Source of the DNA: a virus
DNA: 64,000 nucleotides
IMG/VR virus record: IMGVR_UViG_3300010165_000001
Location: 76,165-140,164 of that record
Strand: one strand, 5' to 3'
Shown: positions 4,210 to 26,875 of the stretch, piece by piece
Layout of the letters: each line of letters opens with the position of its first letter
Position numbering within the stretch: the stretch's first letter is position 1
Made by a program: the position numbers and the translations under genes
The notes under the pieces: generated by a model
Told to the model about the DNA's origin: nothing
What the model saw: only the letters and a program-made list of their open reading frames with translations
Databases searched by the model: none

Positions 4210-5955
4210 CTATTTTATTTCTCTTACTTCAAAGTTTTCGTTATCATAAATACTTCTTCTCTCTAAATAATGTTTATAGAGGAATTTGTTTGTCATGTCT
4301 ATAAAATCGTATATCTGTGTTGTATTATCTTCTTCTTTACGTCTTAAAGCACGACCTATTCTTTGTAATACTTGCCTTAAGGACTTTCCTCCTGCTGCAA
4401 TAATTAAAGTATTAATTCCAGAAATATCCACACCTTCATCTATAAGTGAAGTAGCAATAAGAACTTTAAGTTTACCTGACTTCATATCAGATAAATACTG
4501 TTTACGTTTATCTGTTTCTAAATCACCGTAAATAAATTCATGAGGAATATCATAACTTTCTAGTAATTCCGATATATTATTACCATGTTGTAAGAAATTA
4601 ACAATAATTAAAATACCTTTATTATCATAATAACACTTTTCTGTTATTTTTGCAACTAATGTATTTCTAAATTCATTATTCACAATACCTTTATCATATG
4701 CTACTTGGTATTGATTTTCTTCCTCTAAGTCAGTTGGGTTAGCTATAGGTATTGAATTGATTGTTGGTCTAGCTGATATTCCTCTTTCTATTAGATAATC
4801 ATTAGATACTTTAATAAGTATTTCTCCACATAATGCTTTTAGTCTCTGTACTGTTAGAGGGTCACTGTGGTCAATAGAACCTGTCAGTCCTATTTTGTAT
4901 AGAGCATTTTCACATTGTAATAAACTTGTATACCAAGTATCAGATTTAGCATGATGGAACTCATCACCAATGAAACATACAATACTCTGTAAGAAGTCTT
5001 TCATCTTGTAGTACTTATCATACTTCTTTTCATTTTTCTTTCTAAGGATTTCTTGGTACTTAACATTATACGTATTTAATTTCATCATTAATTCTGAATC
5101 TGATTTGTGGTCTTGATATATTTTAGTTAGTTCTTCTTTAAATGCTTGGTCTGCTTTTGTTTTAACTTTCATTTGTTCTAATATTAAGAATAACATTGTT
5201 CTCTTGTTAGGTGTTGTAGATAGTTTAGGTAATACCTGTAAAGCAACCTTCTTATAAATCATTTGTTTCTGGGTTAAAGTTACACCCTCACTTGGGTCTT
5301 TAAGATTTGCATTAACTGTAGGTATCATTACCACATTTACTTGTTTTATATCAAATGAACCTGCACCTATTTTACCTATAGGAATATTTAGCCTTTCTTT
5401 CATTCTGTCTGCTGTTTGATGGAATATTTCTTTACTGTGTGTGAAGAAAGCAATCGTTTCTCCTTTTTCTAAGTAAGGTAGAAGTTCTTGTATAATTCCT
5501 GCTGCTATCTCACTTTTCCCTGCATTAGTGGCTGCATTTAATATGCCATTATACTTAACTAGGGATTCTTCTACACCTTCTTGTTGATAGTCTCTTAGTG
5601 TAATTGTTCCTATCTTGTTATCTAATAACTTTATTTCTTTAGTTATATCTTCTGGTTCTAAGAAAGCTTCACTTCTTTCATCCACAACATCAAATTGGAA
5701 TGTATATCTATTCTGTAAATCGTATAATAATTCCTTTACTTGTTCTAAGAGACCACTAGGAAATCTATCTTTATCGAATTCATAGAAGTCTGTATATCCA
5801 TCCCATTTCTTAAGTTTAAATGCTTTAACAAACTGATAACCTTGTGCTCTTACGCCTATATGTGTATGAACCCTTTTTCTAAAAACCTCCCTTAACGTTT
5901 CTTCATTACCACCAAACTCCACGTAAGTATAAATATTTTGTAAATATAATTTCAT
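4210..5955 (-). CDS. superfamily 2 DNA helicase (DExH box)
   Basis: Motif I ATNAGKSEIAAG, motif II GDEFHH, motif VI QRIGRALRR. Start placed at the ATG at 5955 because AAAGGAG lies 5 nt upstream; the track TTG at 5970 overlaps that RBS. Confidence 0.8.
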   Translation of the reverse strand: MKLYLQNIYTYVEFGGNEETLREVFRKRVHTHIGVRAQGYQFVKAFKLKKWDGYTDFYEFDKDRFPSGLLEQVKELLYDLQNRYTFQFDVVDERSEAFLEPEDITKEIKLLDNKIGTITLRDYQQEGVEESLVKYNGILNAATNAGKSEIAAGIIQELLPYLEKGETIAFFTHSKEIFHQTADRMKERLNIPIGKIGAGSFDIKQVNVVMIPTVNANLKDPSEGVTLTQKQMIYKKVALQVLPKLSTTPNKRTMLFLILEQMKVKTKADQAFKEELTKIYQDHKSDSELMMKLNTYNVKYQEILRKKNEKKYDKYYKMKDFLQSIVCFIGDEFHHAKSDTWYTSLLQCENALYKIGLTGSIDHSDPLTVQRLKALCGEILIKVSNDYLIERGISARPTINSIPIANPTDLEEENQYQVAYDKGIVNNEFRNTLVAKITEKCYYDNKGILIIVNFLQHGNNISELLESYDIPHEFIYGDLETDKRKQYLSDMKSGKLKVLIATSLIDEGVDISGINTLIIAAGGKSLRQVLQRIGRALRRKEEDNTTQIYDFIDMTNKFLYKHYLERRSIYDNENFEVREIK

Positions 5956-19010: not shown

Positions 19011-19534
19011 GTCTCACCATATTCTTTCTTAATTAATGGTAATTGTAATTTTATAAAATCTATATCTAAACTTATATTTCTTAAATCTTGTATAATACTA
19101 TTATAGTCATCTATTTCACCTAAATAATCACATACATAATTAATATTATCACTTAAAATATTTAAATCTTTCTCAGTTAAATGTTTTACATTTTCTGGGT
19201 TTTCAGTTAAAGCATTTATTGTAGAATACACCTCTAAAACAATCAGTTGCATTAAACGATAAACTTTAGAATTTTGCCTTTTTAATCCTGATTTTATAAC
19301 TCTTCTTACAAAACTATTTTCCCCTAAATCTTGGGAAGTAAGTTGTACATTACCATTTTTTAAATATTTTAAATTTTCTTCTGCTAATAAACTAATTTGT
19401 AAATTAGGTGTATAATAGAAAGAAATAAAATCTAATTCATCATCTAACATATTCGTGCTTAAGAAACTATTCTTAACTTCTATACTTGTTAAAAATTTAA
19501 CCAATTCAGGTGGTTGTGGTATAATTTGATTCAT
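19007..19534 (-). CDS. hypothetical baseplate-module protein (175 aa)
   Basis: ORF track; 4-nt overlaps on both sides suggest translational coupling. Confidence 0.5.
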   Translation of the reverse strand: MNQIIPQPPELVKFLTSIEVKNSFLSTNMLDDELDFISFYYTPNLQISLLAEENLKYLKNGNVQLTSQDLGENSFVRRVIKSGLKRQNSKVYRLMQLIVLEVYSTINALTENPENVKHLTEKDLNILSDNINYVCDYLGEIDDYNSIIQDLRNISLDIDFIKLQLPLIKKEYGET

Positions 19535-20343
19535 TAAAATCCTCCTAATCCATAACCAATAGCTAAGGACATATTGCTTAAAGAACCCTCTAAACCATTT
19601 GTATTTACTCTTGGATTATATATTGTTCTTCCTTTACTATCTACGCCTAATGAGCCTACACCTTCTGGTGACGTTGAACCTTTTCCTCTAGCTCTATCTA
19701 TCGTATCCATAGCTTGTTTATTTCTAGCATTTTGTTCTTCCTCTGCTCTTGTTTGGTCTTGTATATACCTATCACTTGTATATCCAGAACTCTTATTGTT
19801 ATTTCCAATATTAGAAGAATCTATTGTATCAAACTCAGGTTCTCCTGCATCTCCTAAGATAACTAAAGAAATTTGGTATTTGTATAATAGAGATTGTTCA
19901 CTTGAACGTTCTATCTTAAATCCTTGTGGAGATAAATGTACTTTGTAAGATTCATCATCTGTTAAGTTATAAAACACCATGTCATAAGAACTCTTATTAC
20001 CACTACCTGCAGTATTACCATATTTATTAATTATATCTTCTAGCTCATCTAATTTATCTTTACCATTTTTCATTTTCCCATCAAAATCTTTACGTCTTTT
20101 TAATCCTGTTTGACCAGAGAATTGAATTGTTTTTACATCTTGTCCGTAATCTTCATAAAGAATACTTGATTGTGTTTTTAGTACTGAAGTTCTATGTGGT
20201 ATTTCTTTACTATAATCTTCAGGGTTTACTCTGAACCTATATATTTTTGTTGTACCATCACTCTTATGTTTTAATTCTAATACAAAACGTTTTAAAGTAT
20301 TTCTATCTTTTGTCGTATAATCTGCTTGTGGCACAATTTTCAC
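19534..20343 (-). CDS. baseplate-module protein (269 aa)
   Basis: GTG start at 20343 lies inside a GAGAGGTG Shine-Dalgarno-like string, so the GTG 9 nt downstream is an alternative start. First gene after the internal terminator at 20422-20448. Confidence 0.55.
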   Translation of the reverse strand: MKIVPQADYTTKDRNTLKRFVLELKHKSDGTTKIYRFRVNPEDYSKEIPHRTSVLKTQSSILYEDYGQDVKTIQFSGQTGLKRRKDFDGKMKNGKDKLDELEDIINKYGNTAGSGNKSSYDMVFYNLTDDESYKVHLSPQGFKIERSSEQSLLYKYQISLVILGDAGEPEFDTIDSSNIGNNNKSSGYTSDRYIQDQTRAEEEQNARNKQAMDTIDRARGKGSTSPEGVGSLGVDSKGRTIYNPRVNTNGLEGSLSNMSLAIGYGLGGF

Positions 20344-20421
20344 CTCTCTATATTATAACATATTTTTTATGTATCTCCAATCTATACACAACTAATATAG
20401 CACGACCTAGTTATTTTTATT

Positions 20422-20448
20422 AAAAAAAGACCTATATAAATAGGTCTT
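20422..20448 (-). terminator. rho-independent terminator inside the tail/baseplate cluster
   Basis: AAGACCTA/TAGGTCTT stem followed by T7 on the minus strand, immediately after the stop at 20454. Confidence 0.75.
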
Positions 20449-20453
20449 AATAA

Positions 20454-20924
20454 CTAATAGGCTATTATTCTAATTAATTCTTGATTTTCATTTCCTCCAG
20501 AAGAATTAGTGCGAAATCCTTCTATATAATTATCTTGAATGTATATATATTTTTGTACAAAAGCTCCTCCTTGAGCCCCTAATATAAATTTAGTAGCTTT
20601 TTCTGATTCTGTTACGTAAGGGTGAACTTTAGGAACGTACTGATAGTTGTAATTATGTGAACTACCTGTTTGTTTAAATAGAAATATCCATCCATTTTTA
20701 CACTCAGTCAGTTTTTTATCTATATCTATTCTTTCTCCATCACCTAAAATAGACTTACCTTCCCACAATATAGTATATAGTGGTTCTCTTGTATCATTCA
20801 TTATATCCTCAACATCATATTTCCACTGTTCTAAAGTCTGACCATTATTAAATGTAACGTTACCTGATAATGTTTTAGGGTACAGTTGTTGGTATTTACC
20901 ATTATTATTTCCATTCATTTGCAT
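20454..20924 (-). CDS. hypothetical protein (156 aa), last gene of the accessory trio
   Basis: ORF abuts the subtilase gene with no spacer (20924/20925); no motif recognised. Confidence 0.55.
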   Translation of the reverse strand: MQMNGNNNGKYQQLYPKTLSGNVTFNNGQTLEQWKYDVEDIMNDTREPLYTILWEGKSILGDGERIDIDKKLTECKNGWIFLFKQTGSSHNYNYQYVPKVHPYVTESEKATKFILGAQGGAFVQKYIYIQDNYIEGFRTNSSGGNENQELIRIIAY

Positions 20925-22019
20925 TTAGTTATTACCCCTTATTTGTATATTGTCATATTCATTTGTCGGGTACTTAGGTAAACCTGCTCCATATTTCTCA
21001 ACTTCTCCAAGATTTTCAGCATTAACAGACATTCTCTGCAATATTTTTTCCCTATCTTCACCATATTTTTGTTTATATAGTATATATATTCCTAATGTAG
21101 CTGGTGCAGCATAAGAAGTTCCTGTTCCTGAATTATATGATTGACTTACTTCTTTTGTCTTATCTATAGTTGTAGATAATATACTCGTTCCTCCGTTTGA
21201 AAAATCTATATTTCTTCCTACAGAACTATTTAGATTCTTCTCTTTATTATCTTTAATATTAGCACAAGTTACTACAAAAGGATATTTAGACGGGTATACT
21301 ACATTATGAGATTCTTGGTCATCTGAAGGTTGGGTATTACCTGCACTACAAAAAATAGCTACCCCTGCTTCATAAGCAGCTCGAAAAGCTTCTTTTCTTG
21401 CATAGGATTCTGTGGTACTAGAGAAAGAACAATTTACAGCATCCATACCATTTTCTATAGCCCAATTTATTCCTTTTATTTGGGAACTCCATATTGTCCT
21501 ATTTATACCACCTTTACCATCATCTATTCTTATAGCGTATAAATCTACATCAGGAGCTATACCTAAAACTTTATTATCTAAACCTTTAGATGCTATAATA
21601 CCTCCAACTCTTGTTCCATGACTACTCACTAAGTCTTTATCGTAAGGTACACTTGAATCATAAGCATTATATCCACCCGCTAAAACTATATTTTCATGTT
21701 TTTGTATACCTGTATCCATAACCCCTACCTTAAACCCTTTACCTGTAATTCCTTCTTTATGAAATTCCTTAATATTCATCATATCAAAAGCATAGGTTGT
21801 TTCTGTAGATTCTAAATTAGTTTCATCTGTAGTATCATTACTATCTTTTTCTATGCTTAATATACTAGGTTCTTTATATAATTCCTTAACATCTTCCTCT
21901 TCCATATAACAAATACAAATTCTTTTTATGTGTTTTAATTTTTCTATTTTTATTGCTCCATGATTTGAAAGTAACTCTTCGTTACCTTCTCTATTAAAAG
22001 TTATTAAATATTTATTCAT
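20925..22019 (-). CDS. subtilisin-like serine protease (peptidase S8) with N-terminal I9-like propeptide
   Basis: Catalytic triad contexts VGVMDTGI (Asp), HGTRVGGIIAS (His) and GTSYAAPA (Ser), in canonical order. Confidence 0.8.
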   Translation of the reverse strand: MNKYLITFNREGNEELLSNHGAIKIEKLKHIKRICICYMEEEDVKELYKEPSILSIEKDSNDTTDETNLESTETTYAFDMMNIKEFHKEGITGKGFKVGVMDTGIQKHENIVLAGGYNAYDSSVPYDKDLVSSHGTRVGGIIASKGLDNKVLGIAPDVDLYAIRIDDGKGGINRTIWSSQIKGINWAIENGMDAVNCSFSSTTESYARKEAFRAAYEAGVAIFCSAGNTQPSDDQESHNVVYPSKYPFVVTCANIKDNKEKNLNSSVGRNIDFSNGGTSILSTTIDKTKEVSQSYNSGTGTSYAAPATLGIYILYKQKYGEDREKILQRMSVNAENLGEVEKYGAGLPKYPTNEYDNIQIRGNN

Positions 22020-22801
22020 TAGTCAGTCACCTCAAACCAAATCATTGCTTCTTGTGGTTCTTCTTTAGATACTACGATAGGATTCCTAGTTATTAGTTTA
22101 TCTTTGACCTTATCATTAACTTTTAGACTTTCTAAGAATGGGTAGTACATTAAGTTTTCTTTTTCAACTGTTTCTCTCTTTTGATATTCTTCTACAGCCT
22201 TAACTACAGCATCTGCATAATCATATAACTTCTGAGTCCAGTTGTTTTTATTTTCTCTATTCGACCTTGACCAATTTCCACCTAAAAAGAAATCTTTTCG
22301 TTGTTGTGTAGAAAGTTCTAATTGTACACCCATGCCTAAAGTTGTTCTATTAGCAATATTCATTGGTTCTACACCTGCTAGATTTCCTGGTGATTCTCTA
22401 CAGTCAAAACCTTTTTCTGCTAAATTTTTCCAAATCAGGTTTTTAAGGGCAGTATTTCCACCACCCATATATGTGTAACTTCCATCTCCTGCTGCTCCAT
22501 GTACAGATATAGAATGTTTTGAATCTTGTATCTTAGATATAATTCTAGGTGCATCATACCTTGTACTCGTTACATGTAGTTGTGTATTGTTACTAGATAA
22601 TTTAGCTACAAAAGAGAAATAATTATATCCACCTTTTTCGGCTATCACTCTCGCTAATTCAGTACTACCTATCTCAATACCGCCACCATGTACAGCCATA
22701 GATATAATATCACTAGGTGCATCAATTGTTTCTATATCCCAATCTGTTCCTTCTGTTGTTTTACTCATAAGGTCAGTCATAGAATTATATAAGTCTGCCA
22801 A
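22019..22801 (-). CDS. PghP-like poly-gamma-glutamate hydrolase family protein
   Basis: AVHGGGIEIGSTELA, LHVTSTRYD, SVHG and GVQLELSTQQRKDFF match the signature blocks I remember from phage PghP/DUF867 zinc hydrolases. TTG start at 22801 sits 5 nt after AAAGGAGGG. Confidence 0.7.
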   Translation of the reverse strand: MADLYNSMTDLMSKTTEGTDWDIETIDAPSDIISMAVHGGGIEIGSTELARVIAEKGGYNYFSFVAKLSSNNTQLHVTSTRYDAPRIISKIQDSKHSISVHGAAGDGSYTYMGGGNTALKNLIWKNLAEKGFDCRESPGNLAGVEPMNIANRTTLGMGVQLELSTQQRKDFFLGGNWSRSNRENKNNWTQKLYDYADAVVKAVEEYQKRETVEKENLMYYPFLESLKVNDKVKDKLITRNPIVVSKEEPQEAMIWFEVTD

Positions 22802-25800
22802 CTATAGACCCTCCTTTATTTTATACGTAGGTAATGGTTTATCTACAAAATATAAATCTTTAATAACTGAGTCTACCGTTGTTGATAATTTAATTGTATC
22901 TGAAATAGTTCCTGTATAGGATATATAATTAGTTACATTATCTACTTCATTATCTATCATAATACATAACACTTTAGTATTTGTAGACCATTTAACTGTT
23001 ACTTTATTAAATGTATTTTCTTTAATTTTTTTAGAACTTTGTATTGTTACCCCACCTACCGTAGCCTTAACTTGACCACTATTAACCGTTTGTACTAAAA
23101 TACCTCCACCATCAATAATTGTATTATTAGATAAAGTTGTAGGTTCTATTTGAATACTTAATGTTCCTTCATTTAAGTTTAACACACTATTAGGAACTTG
23201 TAAAGTCTCACTTAAAGACTTAAATACTTCTATACCTCCATCTTTATAAATAGGTTCATTATTATTAAATGTTACTCCTCTATCAGTAATACTACTATTC
23301 CTTGTGAATATCGCTGTGTAATCTTTTGGTTTTTCTGTATCAGATATCGGGCTACTTAAATCTTTAATGTCATCTTTCGTAGCATATTCATATTTAGGAG
23401 TATATTTAGTTAATTCACCTGTACTTCTCTTATAACTTACTTGATAGAAGTAATCATAATTTAATCCTTTTATTTTAACATAATAAGTTAAATTATTCAT
23501 ATTCTCTACCTCTACTCTACAACCTGTTGGTATAGAACCTCCACCAAAATCTTTAATTGTTATTTTACTTGAGTAAAAAACAATATTATCTTGGAATGTA
23601 TCTTTCATATAAATGATAAGCTCTTCTATTGTATTTATGAATTCTCCTGTATATTCATTCACTAATTTGTTATCAATATTTGTCTTATAAGGATTATAAT
23701 TAGCTGTAGGTGCTAAGAATGGTTCACCTATTGCATTAAACGTATAGTCTTTTTCTTTAGGTTTATATTCTACAAGTAATACACCTTGTTTATTAGCATT
23801 AGCATTTGTTCTACCTTTATATACAATAATACTGAATAGTCTATTGTTGTACGAGAAAGCACCTTCATGTTCAATAATATCTGCTGTTTTCCCTTGTGCA
23901 CTTAAATAATCTTTCAGTTCTTGTGGGTGATAAGTGTAATCATTCATAATATCCCCACTAGGGCTTATCTCTTGTACACCTTGTAAATGGTATGTGTGTA
24001 TTTCTGTATCTCTAGAAGGATTGTAGTTACCTCCTAATGTTTGTACTATTGTGTTATTAACTAAAGTCATACCTTGTTTCTTAGCTGAATTATTCGTAAC
24101 CCCAGTTAATAAATCATCAGACCATAAAGTTGAGTTAGAAGGGTTTATCCATAAGTAACCTGTTCGTTTACTAAAGTCTTTATTGAAGAATACAATTGTA
24201 TCTCTTTGTAAATATACTCCTTTGGTTTGATTATAATATTCTACTCCCCAACCATCTTTAGTTCTAAAGAAGTTCATGTAAGCATTTAAATTAAACTCTT
24301 TAATTGGTGTTAAAGTAGATTTCTCTTGTATATTTCTTAGGCTTGTAACATCAAACTTACCAATATTAAAACTATCTGTTCTAGCATAAAGATATGTTTT
24401 ATTACCTTCTGTTTCTACATGTAATCCTTCTCCACCTGTAGTTCCTGCGAAGAACATGTTTACATATTTAAAGAATTCATCGTATACAACAATCAGTCTT
24501 TTACTCCCTGATTCTGGTGCTGAGTGTATAATATACGTATAACCGTTATGAATTGCTAATCCTTGTGGGAATAAATAAGATAAATTTTCAGATGTTATAA
24601 TACTATCATAATCTTTAAATTTAAAAGGTAAATCTGCATGTATCTTTATATCTCTAAATGTTGTTTGTCTATATTTCTCTTCTGTTTGTTTAATCTCTGG
24701 AATACTATCTACATTCAAATCATCTTTAAATGTTACTAACTCTCGAATAATCTCATCATTTGTTTTTACGTATTTATTAATGTTACTCATAAAATTATTT
24801 AAGTTAGTAATATTACCCTCTACTCTTGAAGATACTTGTTGAACTTGAGTATTAAGTCCTGTAACTTGTTCTAAAGCACTTTTAGAACGTTGTTCAGACC
24901 TTTCAGAAGCATCTATAACTTCTAATAGGTTTTGTTTACCTGCACCATCTAAAAGGTTATTCACACCTTCTAAAGATTCTTGGATTGCTTTTAATTTAGA
25001 TAACTGTTCATCTATCTGATTATCTATATCATCTATCATAGGTTTACCATCTAAAAGTAATCCTTGGTCAGTAAATCTTAAATCATGATTACCGTTTTTT
25101 ATATAGAAATCGTTATGTTCTTTATCTATACCGTATTCTACATAATCTTGTCCGTTATCAAGTATTAAATCATCTTTCTGGGATAATGTACGTTGGTTTC
25201 CTTGGTCGTCAATCTCCCAAGAAGTTCTACTATTCGTTTCAGTATTAAGTACAGAGAACCTAAGCGTACCTTGTTCTGTTAGCTGTAACATTGTAATATG
25301 GTTATTTGTATTTAAATCTCCTTGGTGTTTAAATAACATATCAGGTGCTCTTTGGTTTCTAGATTCAATGATTTCACCATTACCATATTTAGAAGACATT
25401 AAGTCTTCATATTCTGTACCTATACCAAAATCAGTTGCCATTGGTTTTTCATCGTCTTCAGATGTTATTGATAGGAAAGAGTTACCATTTAAACTTCTAA
25501 CAATTGTACCATTACCATTTTGGAATGAGTAATTTAAAGAAGGGAAGATAGAAAACATCATACTACCGTAAGTATAAATATCATCGTTTCTAATGTCTCC
25601 ACTCTCTAATGGATTAGGTGTTAGCATCTTACTATCCTCTGGATTAGAATAAATAGATAAGACAATAGGGTTTCCACTTTCACCTTCTATAAATCCTAAT
25701 AAAACTAGCATACCTGGAATAATTAATGGTGTAGAACCAAAAGGTCTTCCTTCTGGTGTTCTACCTGTAAATCCTCTTGGAAATGGTATAGAATATTGTC

Positions 25801-25972
25801 CATCTGTACCATTTACTCTTCCTGCATATGTTCTACTTGTTCTTACTTCTACAGTACTGTATTGATAATTGACTTTCGTTATTGTACCATAAGTTAAACT
25901 ATTAATTTTAAAATCATCTGAATCTGTTTTCTTTAAGTTACTACCTAAAGAAGATTGCATTTGTATTGCCAT
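22802..25972 (-). CDS. baseplate hub/tail tip protein (1056 aa)
   Basis: Follows the two tail-associated hydrolases, where K-like phages carry the hub protein. Central coiled-coil region; no GDPD motif seen. Confidence 0.5.
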   Translation of the reverse strand: MAIQMQSSLGSNLKKTDSDDFKINSLTYGTITKVNYQYSTVEVRTSRTYAGRVNGTDGQYSIPFPRGFTGRTPEGRPFGSTPLIIPGMLVLLGFIEGESGNPIVLSIYSNPEDSKMLTPNPLESGDIRNDDIYTYGSMMFSIFPSLNYSFQNGNGTIVRSLNGNSFLSITSEDDEKPMATDFGIGTEYEDLMSSKYGNGEIIESRNQRAPDMLFKHQGDLNTNNHITMLQLTEQGTLRFSVLNTETNSRTSWEIDDQGNQRTLSQKDDLILDNGQDYVEYGIDKEHNDFYIKNGNHDLRFTDQGLLLDGKPMIDDIDNQIDEQLSKLKAIQESLEGVNNLLDGAGKQNLLEVIDASERSEQRSKSALEQVTGLNTQVQQVSSRVEGNITNLNNFMSNINKYVKTNDEIIRELVTFKDDLNVDSIPEIKQTEEKYRQTTFRDIKIHADLPFKFKDYDSIITSENLSYLFPQGLAIHNGYTYIIHSAPESGSKRLIVVYDEFFKYVNMFFAGTTGGEGLHVETEGNKTYLYARTDSFNIGKFDVTSLRNIQEKSTLTPIKEFNLNAYMNFFRTKDGWGVEYYNQTKGVYLQRDTIVFFNKDFSKRTGYLWINPSNSTLWSDDLLTGVTNNSAKKQGMTLVNNTIVQTLGGNYNPSRDTEIHTYHLQGVQEISPSGDIMNDYTYHPQELKDYLSAQGKTADIIEHEGAFSYNNRLFSIIVYKGRTNANANKQGVLLVEYKPKEKDYTFNAIGEPFLAPTANYNPYKTNIDNKLVNEYTGEFINTIEELIIYMKDTFQDNIVFYSSKITIKDFGGGSIPTGCRVEVENMNNLTYYVKIKGLNYDYFYQVSYKRSTGELTKYTPKYEYATKDDIKDLSSPISDTEKPKDYTAIFTRNSSITDRGVTFNNNEPIYKDGGIEVFKSLSETLQVPNSVLNLNEGTLSIQIEPTTLSNNTIIDGGGILVQTVNSGQVKATVGGVTIQSSKKIKENTFNKVTVKWSTNTKVLCIMIDNEVDNVTNYISYTGTISDTIKLSTTVDSVIKDLYFVDKPLPTYKIKEGL

Positions 25973-26875
25973 TTATTTACCCTCCACGTAAAAATCAAAT
26001 ATAGGGTCTTTATATCTCATAACTCTTCCGTTAAAAGCTTCCCAAAGTTCTTCTAACTTATAAGTTTTCACTTTTCCAGATTCGTCTATAGGGAAGTGAC
26101 CTATAATAGTTGCTACTTCTCCATCTCCCATATAAATACCTACATTATCGTCATTAATACCAAAGAATATTAAATCTCCTTCATTAATTTTTGAAATGTC
26201 ATCTTTATATTTATGACCCTTTTCTAGTATAGTATTAAAATTCTCTCCTGTCAAGACATTAACACTTCTTAATGGATATTCTAATTCTACATCTACATTA
26301 TAGTATAGCCAATAGATAAAGTTATATGAATCACAAGGAAGTTGTTTATCATCATTCACTAATGGATTCTGAAAGGGATAACCTTTATACATATAATAAA
26401 TATTATCTAAATTAACGTTACCTATCATATATTCATAGTAAGCTTGTTCTGACTTTCTAAGTTCAGGTTGTAGGTCTTCATAATCCATATAGGTAGCATA
26501 TATTTGCTGTATGTCTGAAGATAAGGAACTTATAAAATAACTTGATTTAAGTGTTCTTTCTACTTTTATTTGTTCAGTATGTTCTGATTCAGCCTTCTTA
26601 CCATCATAAGTATGTGTTAAGGTTCTTACCTTAATATTTACTTCATATAATCCTGTTTGTATTTCTTTTATATCATAGTTAGAGTTTGTTATTATCATTT
26701 GTTGAATTACATTAGAGTAAGGTCTTAAATGTGAAGCTGAATCTACTGTATCTGTTTCTGCTATTTGTTCTAATTCTTTTTGTTTATCAAATATTGTATC
26801 TTCATCAAAATCTTTTTCATATTCATATATATTTTTAATATACATCTCTACTATTTTATTAATATCTGTATCCAA
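25973..26875 (-). CDS. NlpC/P60-like tail-associated peptidase (300 aa)
   Basis: C-terminal half has the Cys...His arrangement (PCDSYNFIYWLYY ... GDLIFFG ... VGIYMGDGEVATIIGH). TTG start after TAAGGAGG. Confidence 0.6.
   Translation of the reverse strand: MDTDINKIVEMYIKNIYEYEKDFDEDTIFDKQKELEQIAETDTVDSASHLRPYSNVIQQMIITNSNYDIKEIQTGLYEVNIKVRTLTHTYDGKKAESEHTEQIKVERTLKSSYFISSLSSDIQQIYATYMDYEDLQPELRKSEQAYYEYMIGNVNLDNIYYMYKGYPFQNPLVNDDKQLPCDSYNFIYWLYYNVDVELEYPLRSVNVLTGENFNTILEKGHKYKDDISKINEGDLIFFGINDDNVGIYMGDGEVATIIGHFPIDESGKVKTYKLEELWEAFNGRVMRYKDPIFDFYVEGK

Follow-up and report, generated by a model that had tools for sequence, protein, structure and literature searches.

A PghP-like hydrolase stacked on a protease and fibre-tip cassette in the baseplate operon of a staphylococcal myovirus

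Three genes behind the baseplate hub

A 64-kb stretch of staphylococcal phage DNA (IMG/VR virus record IMGVR_UViG_3300010165_000001, positions 76,165 to 140,164; hereafter the window) carries three accessory genes in its baseplate operon, which are the subject of this study. Unless another genome is named, all coordinates are window positions, and all window features lie on the minus strand. The source phage is a Baoshanvirus-type myovirus of the staphylococcal Herelleviridae. Downstream of the baseplate hub gene (22802-25972, 1056 aa), the window encodes a PghP-like zinc gamma-glutamyl hydrolase (22019-22801, 260 aa), a pro-subtilisin of peptidase family S8 (20925-22019, 364 aa), and a small receptor-binding fibre protein (20454-20924, 156 aa), referred to below as PghP, the protease and the tip. 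These genes are two independently mobile cassettes stacked by recombination, not one unit. The first cassette consists of the C-terminal domain of the hub and PghP, and the second of a triad formed by a short C-terminal tail peptide, the S8 protease and the tip.

An earlier note on this DNA had placed three genes with 0-1-nt junctions between the hub gene and a terminator, and direct reading confirmed all of these coordinates and junctions. The hub stop codon TAG (22804-22802) is directly followed by the TTG start of PghP at 22801, which has an AAGGAGG ribosome-binding site (RBS; 22810..22816) 8 nt on its 5' side and is also the start used in the annotation of phage PSU4. The PghP and protease genes share one nucleotide at 22019 (TAATG), and the TAA of the protease abuts the ATG of the tip at 20925/20924.

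PghP matches PF05908 over profile positions 1-190 of 191 (E = 6.9e-54, 182.7 bits with a cut-off of 22), and it also matches phrog_4175. Among structures in the PDB, it matches PghP of phage PhiNIT1 (3a9l, E = 1.3e-36) and PghL of Bacillus subtilis (5onj/6hri, E = 3e-24). The PghP-like identity proposed in the earlier note is borne out by these matches. The catalytic domain (aa 5-197 by Pfam envelope, 22211..22789) is 96.9% identical to that of PSU4, 69% identical to that of a fusion protein in PSU5, and 45% identical to SEP1 gp034. Its zinc ligands H38, E43 and H101, located in the motifs HGGGIE and SVHG, correspond to H41, E46 and H102 of PghL. Likewise, the residues contacting poly-gamma-glutamate (gamma-PGA), H76, T78 and S79, are kept (H78, T80 and S81 in PhiNIT1 PghP), as are the catalytic E162 (E165 in PhiNIT1 PghP) and R168 (R171 in PghL). 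The published work on PghL and its substrate reports that the His/Thr/Ser site of this enzyme replaces the Arg/Asn/Arg of carboxypeptidase A, that mutation of Arg171 abolishes activity, and that the spacing of the substrate-binding residues suits extended gamma-PGA chains; all assayed members of PF05908 degrade gamma-PGA. The window enzyme thus looks intact and catalytically competent, and poly-gamma-glutamate would be its best-supported substrate, since all gamma-PGA-binding residues of PghL and PghP are kept. A second solved structure named poly-gamma-glutamate hydrolase (PDB 21dc/21dg, 244 aa) matches the window protein at E = 4e-34 and begins MADKY, compared to MADLY in the window. It could be a staphylococcal-phage enzyme; its source organism is absent from the result table.

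The second gene product matches PF00082 (E = 4.8e-32, 111.9 bits with a cut-off of 21.8) and aligns to pro-subtilisin E (3whi) over aa 14-347, propeptide included, in agreement with the earlier description of a complete subtilisin with catalytic triad and propeptide. Alignment with the subtilisin E propeptide places an I9-type propeptide region at about aa 1-72 (21804..22019); the Pfam scan reported no separate I9 match. D102, H134, N228 and S302 are invariant across 32 family members of 43-90% identity. The N-terminus, MNKYLITFNREG, leads directly into the propeptide, and inspection (by eye, with no dedicated predictor) revealed no hydrophobic leader there or in the family consensus MxKYLIVFK. 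Compared to subtilisin, the S8 domain carries no large insertion, and the propeptide junction is not conserved in the family consensus. Members of the family have a uniform length of ~360 aa. Metagenomes contain many members of this family, and species-representative bacterial genomes have essentially none; in the latter, our scan gave only generic subtilisins of <=35% identity. From its sequence, the protein looks like a complete and catalytically competent pro-subtilisin without a signal peptide. A role as an anti-phage defence subtilase was considered and rejected: PADLOC returned only generic subtilase and IetS matches (64 and 21 bits), the partner genes have no PADLOC match, and the context is a tail operon. 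In the NCBIfam scan, every S8 match stayed far below its cut-off. A distant S8 peptidase (29% identity) is encoded elsewhere in the PSU4 genome (OL436245.1, 14985-15866).

The third gene, listed as unknown in the earlier note, can now be assigned by homology and fold match to a receptor-binding fibre tip. Its 156-aa product has no Pfam match and no PDB sequence match; it matches phrog_7389 (E = 6e-18) and, in tblastn searches, Enterococcus tail proteins and the neck and head of Skunavirus receptor-binding proteins (RBPs; GP13 aa 132-280), with 28% identity to the lactococcal RBPs (E = 1e-9). The head domain (~50-156) also forms the extreme C-terminus of fibre proteins of 100-1855 aa (159 representatives by HMMER, Skunavirus RBPs included). 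An AlphaFold2 (AF2) monomer model reached a mean confidence score (pLDDT) of 82, and above 90 in the head. In Foldseek searches, this model matched the monocin side fibre (9j1l_2, E = 1.1e-7, TMq 0.61) and, at about 1e-3, the C-terminal domains of phage K gp144 (5m9f) and phi812 baseplate chains (9euf), and viral tail-tip domains in BFVD were matched at E = 1e-9 with root-mean-square deviations of 1.8-2.6 A. Given the homology to fibre C-termini and the fold matches, the model indicates that the gene 3 product is a small RBP consisting of a neck (aa 1-49, 20778-20924) and a head (aa 50-156, 20457-20777) without an anchor of its own. A split-fibre reading was rejected, as long fibres with the same head have neither an S8 domain nor an IWF motif before the head; the tail peptide described below is therefore not a general pre-head motif.

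A tail peptide, a protease and a fibre neck as a recurrent triad

PghP ends in the peptide IVVSKEEPQEAMIWFEVTD (aa 242-260, 22022..22078), which marks the left edge of the protease cassette. These last 19 residues are identical at 19/19 positions to the C-terminus of the BS1/JDF86 hub, the hubs themselves being 78% and the proteases 54% identical. When the earlier loci were pooled with a metagenome scan, the motif ...VVSxxEPxxAxIWFEV was found to end the upstream protein in 33/33 loci of the protease family, compared to none of 138 control loci carrying generic subtilisins (889 kb); a scan of viral contigs with the S8 alignment yielded 4 loci. On the other side of the protease, the downstream open reading frame (ORF) begins with the neck motif (L/I)YPxT(L/K)xxNV in 17/17 and 20/22 loci, the two exceptions being truncated contigs. 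Every junction within the triad is a stop/start overlap or an abutment. The protease is thus no free-standing addition to the operon; it is the middle part of a conserved triad occurring in many phages and prophages of Bacillota.

The proteins that carry the tail differ widely. In the protease-bearing staphylococcal myoviruses, all upstream ORFs that overlap the protease start end in ...VVS(K/S)xEPxxAxIWFEVxD, and the tail-bearing protein is the hub, PghP, or a collagen-repeat protein (OPT-SC01). The tail ends a 761-aa collagen fibre in a Mammaliicoccus sciuri prophage, and a BppU_N plus collagen anchor in a prophage of Staphylococcus sp. In contigs of siphophages, the triad is located between Dit and Tal, and the upstream proteins are small. 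BppU_N anchors precede the RBP in the homologous modules L023 and L105; the upstream protein of the window is PghP, without BppU_N. Only in the window, in RSM-J51Sa and in one IMG/VR contig (L107) does PghP end in the IWFEV tail, followed by protease and tip. In the phage database, 12 records contain the protease, and it is precisely these 12 that contain the tip.

The tips vary as well. In four loci (L024, L126, L127 and P0254), only the neck is retained and the heads differ, and the N-terminus of the tip is not strictly conserved, given that L126 and L127 start with MMADW/MAKFS. P0254, a metagenomic protein of 509 aa, is a natural fusion of the S8 protease to the neck, followed by a different distal domain. 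This domain has a weak, sub-threshold match to an H-type lectin (E = 0.02).

At the nucleotide level, the tail codons together with the first ~15 codons of the protease (21973..22084) are the most conserved island, and the only stretch that megablast detects in PG-2021_19 and BSwM-KMM1 (85% identity). The RBS of the protease, read from the sequence as GAGGTG (22028..22033), lies within the tail codons for Glu-Val and is nearly invariant across loci. In distant loci, 5-6 of the ~12 tail codons with conserved amino acids differ synonymously, which shows that selection acts on the tail peptide.

Several loci are of interest with respect to gene context. In OPT-SC01 (L012, 3374-6082), a 375-aa collagen-repeat protein with the tail, the S8 protease and the tip are found among small hypothetical genes. 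This triad lies far from the baseplate operon, and the module therefore moves as a unit and needs no hub. The triad of the M. sciuri CP080323 prophage (L017, 4262-8474) is found at the end of the prophage, after holin and endolysin; just upstream, a 112-aa ORF (4262-4600) resembles the N-terminus of the 761-aa fibre protein and may be a duplicated or alternative N-terminal domain. Two of the siphophage contigs (L020, 3181-3846; L022, 3130-3699) have a conserved ORF of 189-221 aa after the tip and before Tal, with ...GPGPQHK/GPAPQQK..AG... in its N-terminus. This protein may be another component of the same device.

Two cassettes and a conserved operon boundary

Comparison with related phages separates the two cassettes. 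Where Golestan101 has 18 bases, the window has 1284 extra bases (22079-23362), which encode the last ~187 residues of the hub and residues 1-240 of PghP. Compared to PSU4, the window has 1662 extra bases (20454-22115), with the codons of the PghP tail, the protease and the tip. In the BLAST comparison with Golestan/BS1, the breakpoint falls at 22078, at the left edge of the protease cassette. Directly after its truncated PghP stop, PSU4 (L002, 3957-4042) keeps TGATTTGGTTT, an 11-nt remnant identical to the window tail codons (A)TG ATT TGG TTT. PSU4 therefore seems to derive from the window arrangement by deletion, and its sequence suggests that it lost the tail, the protease and the tip.

The C-terminal domain of the hub (aa 868-1056, 22805..23371) is homologous to the hub C-termini of PSU5, Alsa_1, 80B and SEP1. 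It is present only in hubs followed by PghP (SEP1, 80B, PSU5, Alsa and PSU4) and missing from the hubs of K, Twort, BS1, Golestan, EW42 and PG-2021_19, all of which are without PghP. A separate search for homologs of this domain returned nothing. The remainder of the hub is also composite: the N-terminal ~400 aa are 47% identical to the K hub, and aa 401-867, without family assignment, are common only to Golestan, EW42, PG-2021_19 and BS1. PHROGs and several GenBank records name the hub 'glycerophosphoryl diester phosphodiesterase'; it has no match to GDPD (PF03009) and owes the name to its N-terminal ~400 aa, which are shared. True GDPD domains are found in the K hub and in the PghP fusion proteins of PSU5/Alsa. 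In Kayvirus, the GDPD domain is part of the hub protein, which is labelled a structural protein in its record.

In SEP1, 80B and PSU4, PghP is a stand-alone gene directly after the hub. PSU5 and Alsa_1 have it in fused form, as the N-terminal domain of a protein of 620-630 aa that is likewise encoded directly after the hub and has a true GDPD as C-terminal domain (PF03009, E = 3e-50). The window PghP aligns with the 630-aa PSU5 protein up to aa 247, including a linker (aa 198-241, 22079..22210) that the alignment shows to be common to the PghP-GDPD fusions, and the PSU4 protein ends inside this linker. One temperate siphovirus has its PghP gene between fibre and holin genes. By tblastn, we detected the PghP domain in 75 records of Staphylococcus phages, most of them large myoviruses from coagulase-negative hosts; hosts of PghP-bearing records include S. 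epidermidis, S. capitis, S. xylosus and S. hominis. S. epidermidis produces gamma-DL-PGA. As early as 2015, PghP-like genes had been noticed in three Staphylococcus phages, and hub-adjacent PghP genes in phages of coagulase-negative staphylococci are known and annotated, and thus not new.

The operon that includes the tail lysins and the hub is closed by an intrinsic terminator (20420..20448) with a 9-bp stem and a run of seven T (20448-20427); its RNA fold of -15.2 kcal/mol (z = -3.7) was not reached by any of 200 shuffled sequences. Sequence reading places a promoter-like site with a TG-extended TATAAT for the next operon at 20352..20379, followed by the tube-initiator gene (19534-20343; PF23980, E = 1.6e-87). 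The gene order on the minus strand is thus two tail lysins, the hub, the three ORFs, terminator, promoter-like site, and tube initiator. In Kayvirus fRuSau02, the hub is directly followed by terminator, promoter and tube-initiator gene, with no PghP, S8 or tip gene in between, and Twort has the same arrangement, with no gene between the hub and terminator/tube initiator. The three genes are therefore extra cargo. This synteny comparison, which the earlier note had proposed, confirms the absence of the genes from K-type baseplate clusters, and places a PghP gene after the hub in SEP1. The order of terminator, promoter-like site and tube initiator at 20352-20448 equals the annotated pair at the equivalent position of fRuSau02, so that the accessory genes must have entered upstream of an operon boundary that is conserved.

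GC content and GC3 of the three genes equal those of their neighbours; their composition is fully ameliorated, on which grounds we rejected a recent foreign acquisition. No paralogs of the three genes were found elsewhere within the window. Using megablast, the region 19500-26000 is matched over its entire length by RSM-J51Sa (94% identity), and only partly by PSU4, Golestan101, BS1/BS2 and JDF86. In BSwM-KMM1 (L013, 1393-7292), the hub, the protease, the tube initiator and neighbouring genes are split into many short ORFs, which looks like frameshift errors in the assembly rather than biology.

A proposed envelope-clearing complex and its alternatives

We think it rather probable, though far from settled, that the two cassettes cooperate: PghP would act on gamma-PGA, the tail peptide would dock the unit of protease and tip, and the composite, made late and together with the baseplate, would clear the cell envelope. 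More specifically, PghP may remove the poly-gamma-glutamate exopolymer of coagulase-negative staphylococci and thereby expose receptors in the wall. The ~17-19-residue C-terminal peptide would serve as a docking or recognition element joining the upstream anchor to the protease-tip unit. This is the most economical reading of the tail, because tail, enzyme and neck are conserved, anchor and head vary, the junctions are coupled, and the contexts are baseplates and fibres. The tip, predicted to be of the trimeric type with a conserved neck and an exchangeable head, may bind a wall glycopolymer as part of an accessory fibre, on which the active protease would be carried to clear surface or matrix proteins. 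Since the tail sits on PghP here, rather than on the hub, PghP is predicted to join the protease and the tip in one composite complex. For its own attachment, PghP may depend on the co-inherited C-terminal domain of the hub. The block would then be a late-expressed, probably baseplate-mounted envelope-clearing kit, in which PghP is bound to a fibre that bears the protease; the model predicts the physical docking, the attachment to the virion, and gamma-PGA and host surface proteins as substrates. With regard to the protease alone, its place in the middle of a conserved triad speaks more for an enzyme mounted on the fibre or maturing it than for a generic secreted protease. The earlier note had suggested a possible pair of capsule or biofilm depolymerases. 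Both enzyme identities and gamma-PGA as the best-supported substrate stand, whereas the notion of one unit or a simple pair gives way to two stacked cassettes.

A number of points weigh against this model. The only PghP studied in this respect, that of PhiNIT1, was reported to be non-structural, soluble and released at burst. The window PghP has no recognisable baseplate-anchor domain. We found in the literature neither a precedent for a virion-borne subtilisin nor a virion proteome of any phage carrying the PghP, S8 or tip genes; the published JS1 virion proteome comes from a Kayvirus-like phage without them. The triads of OPT-SC01 and of the M. sciuri prophage are not part of the baseplate cluster. 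The RBS embedded in the tail explains part of the tail conservation, albeit not all of it. Finally, the neck of the tip was modelled with low confidence as a monomer, and the single-sequence AF2 model of the hub C-terminal domain (pLDDT 37) is unusable.

Similar devices are known from other systems. In the BppU-(BppA)-BppL system of TP901-1/Tuc2009 and in FtbN-FtbP of monocins, a protein anchored to the baseplate and held by Dit bears small (~160-180 aa) RBP trimers on its C-terminal portion, and the monocin side fibre is the best fold match of the window tip. Tuc2009 has the gene order anchor, accessory protein, RBP. The middle gene of the window encodes an active-looking subtilisin, whereas BppU/BppL-type systems have a carbohydrate-binding accessory protein at this place. 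Unlike the BppU/FtbN anchors, the candidate anchor of the window is an enzyme, PghP, in a myovirus, and the candidate docking element is a short conserved peptide instead of a 'treble hook' domain; in monocins, it is the C-terminal hook of the anchor FtbN that receives the small RBP trimers. The Kayvirus hub (K, phi812, fRuSau02) follows the same principle of attaching a wall-polymer-degrading enzyme (GDPD) to the hub, in an operon that also ends in the terminator. However, Kayvirus lacks PghP, S8 and tip, and the window hub lacks GDPD.

PghP itself can be compared with two groups of relatives. The enzymes of PhiNIT1, which like the window phage belongs to the Herelleviridae, and of B. subtilis prophage origin (PghL/PghZ) are members of the same family and fold class, with about 37% identity over the catalytic domain. 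PhiNIT1 PghP and PghL share with the window protein the zinc ligands, the LHVTST substrate site, the catalytic Glu and the anchoring Arg. Unlike these Bacillus enzymes, the window PghP is encoded directly after the hub, is translationally coupled to it, and has a 60-residue C-terminal extension comprising the linker and the putative docking tail. The PghP proteins of SEP1 (gp034), 80B, PSU4 and PSU5/Alsa share the position after the hub and the hub C-terminal domain, at 45-97% identity. In contrast to the window protein, which ends in the IWFEV tail, PghP of these other staphylococcal Twortvirinae stops after the catalytic domain or runs into GDPD.

The foremost alternative, possible but in our view doubtful, is that the protease is a maturase of the phage's own fibres, which recognises the tail, the neck or both and cleaves or otherwise processes them as assembly proceeds in the cytoplasm. 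Conservation is confined to tail, enzyme and neck, with varying anchors and heads, as would be seen for an enzyme and its recognition sequences; moreover, the catalytic residues are invariant, and an enzyme without a signal peptide folds where tails assemble. Proteolytic maturation of fibres is also an established theme, as illustrated by S74 intramolecular chaperones. Like the window protease, the S74 chaperone proteases are serine proteases with a genetic link to a fibre and to flanking sequence that is conserved; yet they belong to another clan, are fused in cis and remove themselves, whereas the S8 protease is encoded separately and has an I9 propeptide of its own. Its architecture is that of a degradative subtilisin with no extra recognition domain, and no cleavage-site signature could be defined, the propeptide junction not being conserved. 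Nor would a maturase require a link to a receptor-binding tip such as the one seen in the fusion P0254.

Following the PhiNIT1 model, all three products could instead be soluble late proteins that are freed at lysis and condition neighbouring cells or biofilm, with the tail serving as recombination joint and as translation-initiation region of the protease. We consider this unlikely. It would fit the report that PhiNIT1 PghP is not virion-bound, the placement of PghP or the triad beside lysis genes in StB12 and some prophages, and the RBS within the tail at the best-conserved nucleotide island. On the other hand, the tail is always in frame, forms the extreme C-terminus of very different proteins, and keeps its amino acids where codons have changed synonymously. 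Baseplate anchors and fibres are the proteins found upstream, a free receptor-binding tip that lacks an anchor would be of little use, and PghP is found fused to GDPD, an enzyme borne by the hub in K.

More speculatively, the subtilisin could be a plug-and-play fibre-assembly enzyme that recognises ...EPxxAxIWFEV and processes or transpeptidates it, comparable to S8 macrocyclases, and so couples swappable anchors to tips via the neck. We give this idea little credence; as a ligase it is weakened by the variable tip N-termini of L126 and L127 and by the S8 domain having no large insertion relative to subtilisin. If it were true, host-range modules would be exchanged by enzymatic means in phages of Bacillota. 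Least probable of all is that the PghP-like enzyme is a third tail lysin cutting the gamma-D-glutamyl (isoglutaminyl)-L-lysine bond of staphylococcal stem peptides: the fold is carboxypeptidase-like, related M14 enzymes cut gamma-D-Glu bonds in muropeptides, and the gene lies within a tail-lysin operon beside upstream CHAP/amidase-type lysins, but H76, T78, S79 and R168, which distinguish PGA hydrolases from carboxypeptidases, are all present, every PF05908 member assayed degrades gamma-PGA, and the PghL spacing fits extended chains of this polymer.

The protease is annotated in the records of BS1, BS2 and Golestan101; the papers on Golestan101 and OPT-SC01 make no mention of these genes. We found no link of a subtilisin to RBP or baseplate modules in the literature, and the tail-S8-tip triad and its fusion to PghP in the window, RSM-J51Sa and L107 therefore appear to be undescribed. 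Our analysis also corrects misleading database names: the hub, called 'glycerophosphoryl diester phosphodiesterase', has no GDPD domain, the 'extracellular serine protease' has no signal peptide, and the 'hypothetical protein' is the tip.

For phage therapy against coagulase-negative staphylococci, it is relevant which phages carry enzymes that strip the PGA layer or the protein matrix, and the locus suggests a kit of three activities: a PGA hydrolase, a protease and a lectin-like tip. The triad is a compact and portable module found on very different anchors in myoviruses, siphoviruses and prophages. If its peptide is a universal docking or recognition tag, the exchange of receptor-binding tips between unrelated tails would have an explanation, and the peptide would offer a ready tool to engineer host range or to display enzymes on virions.

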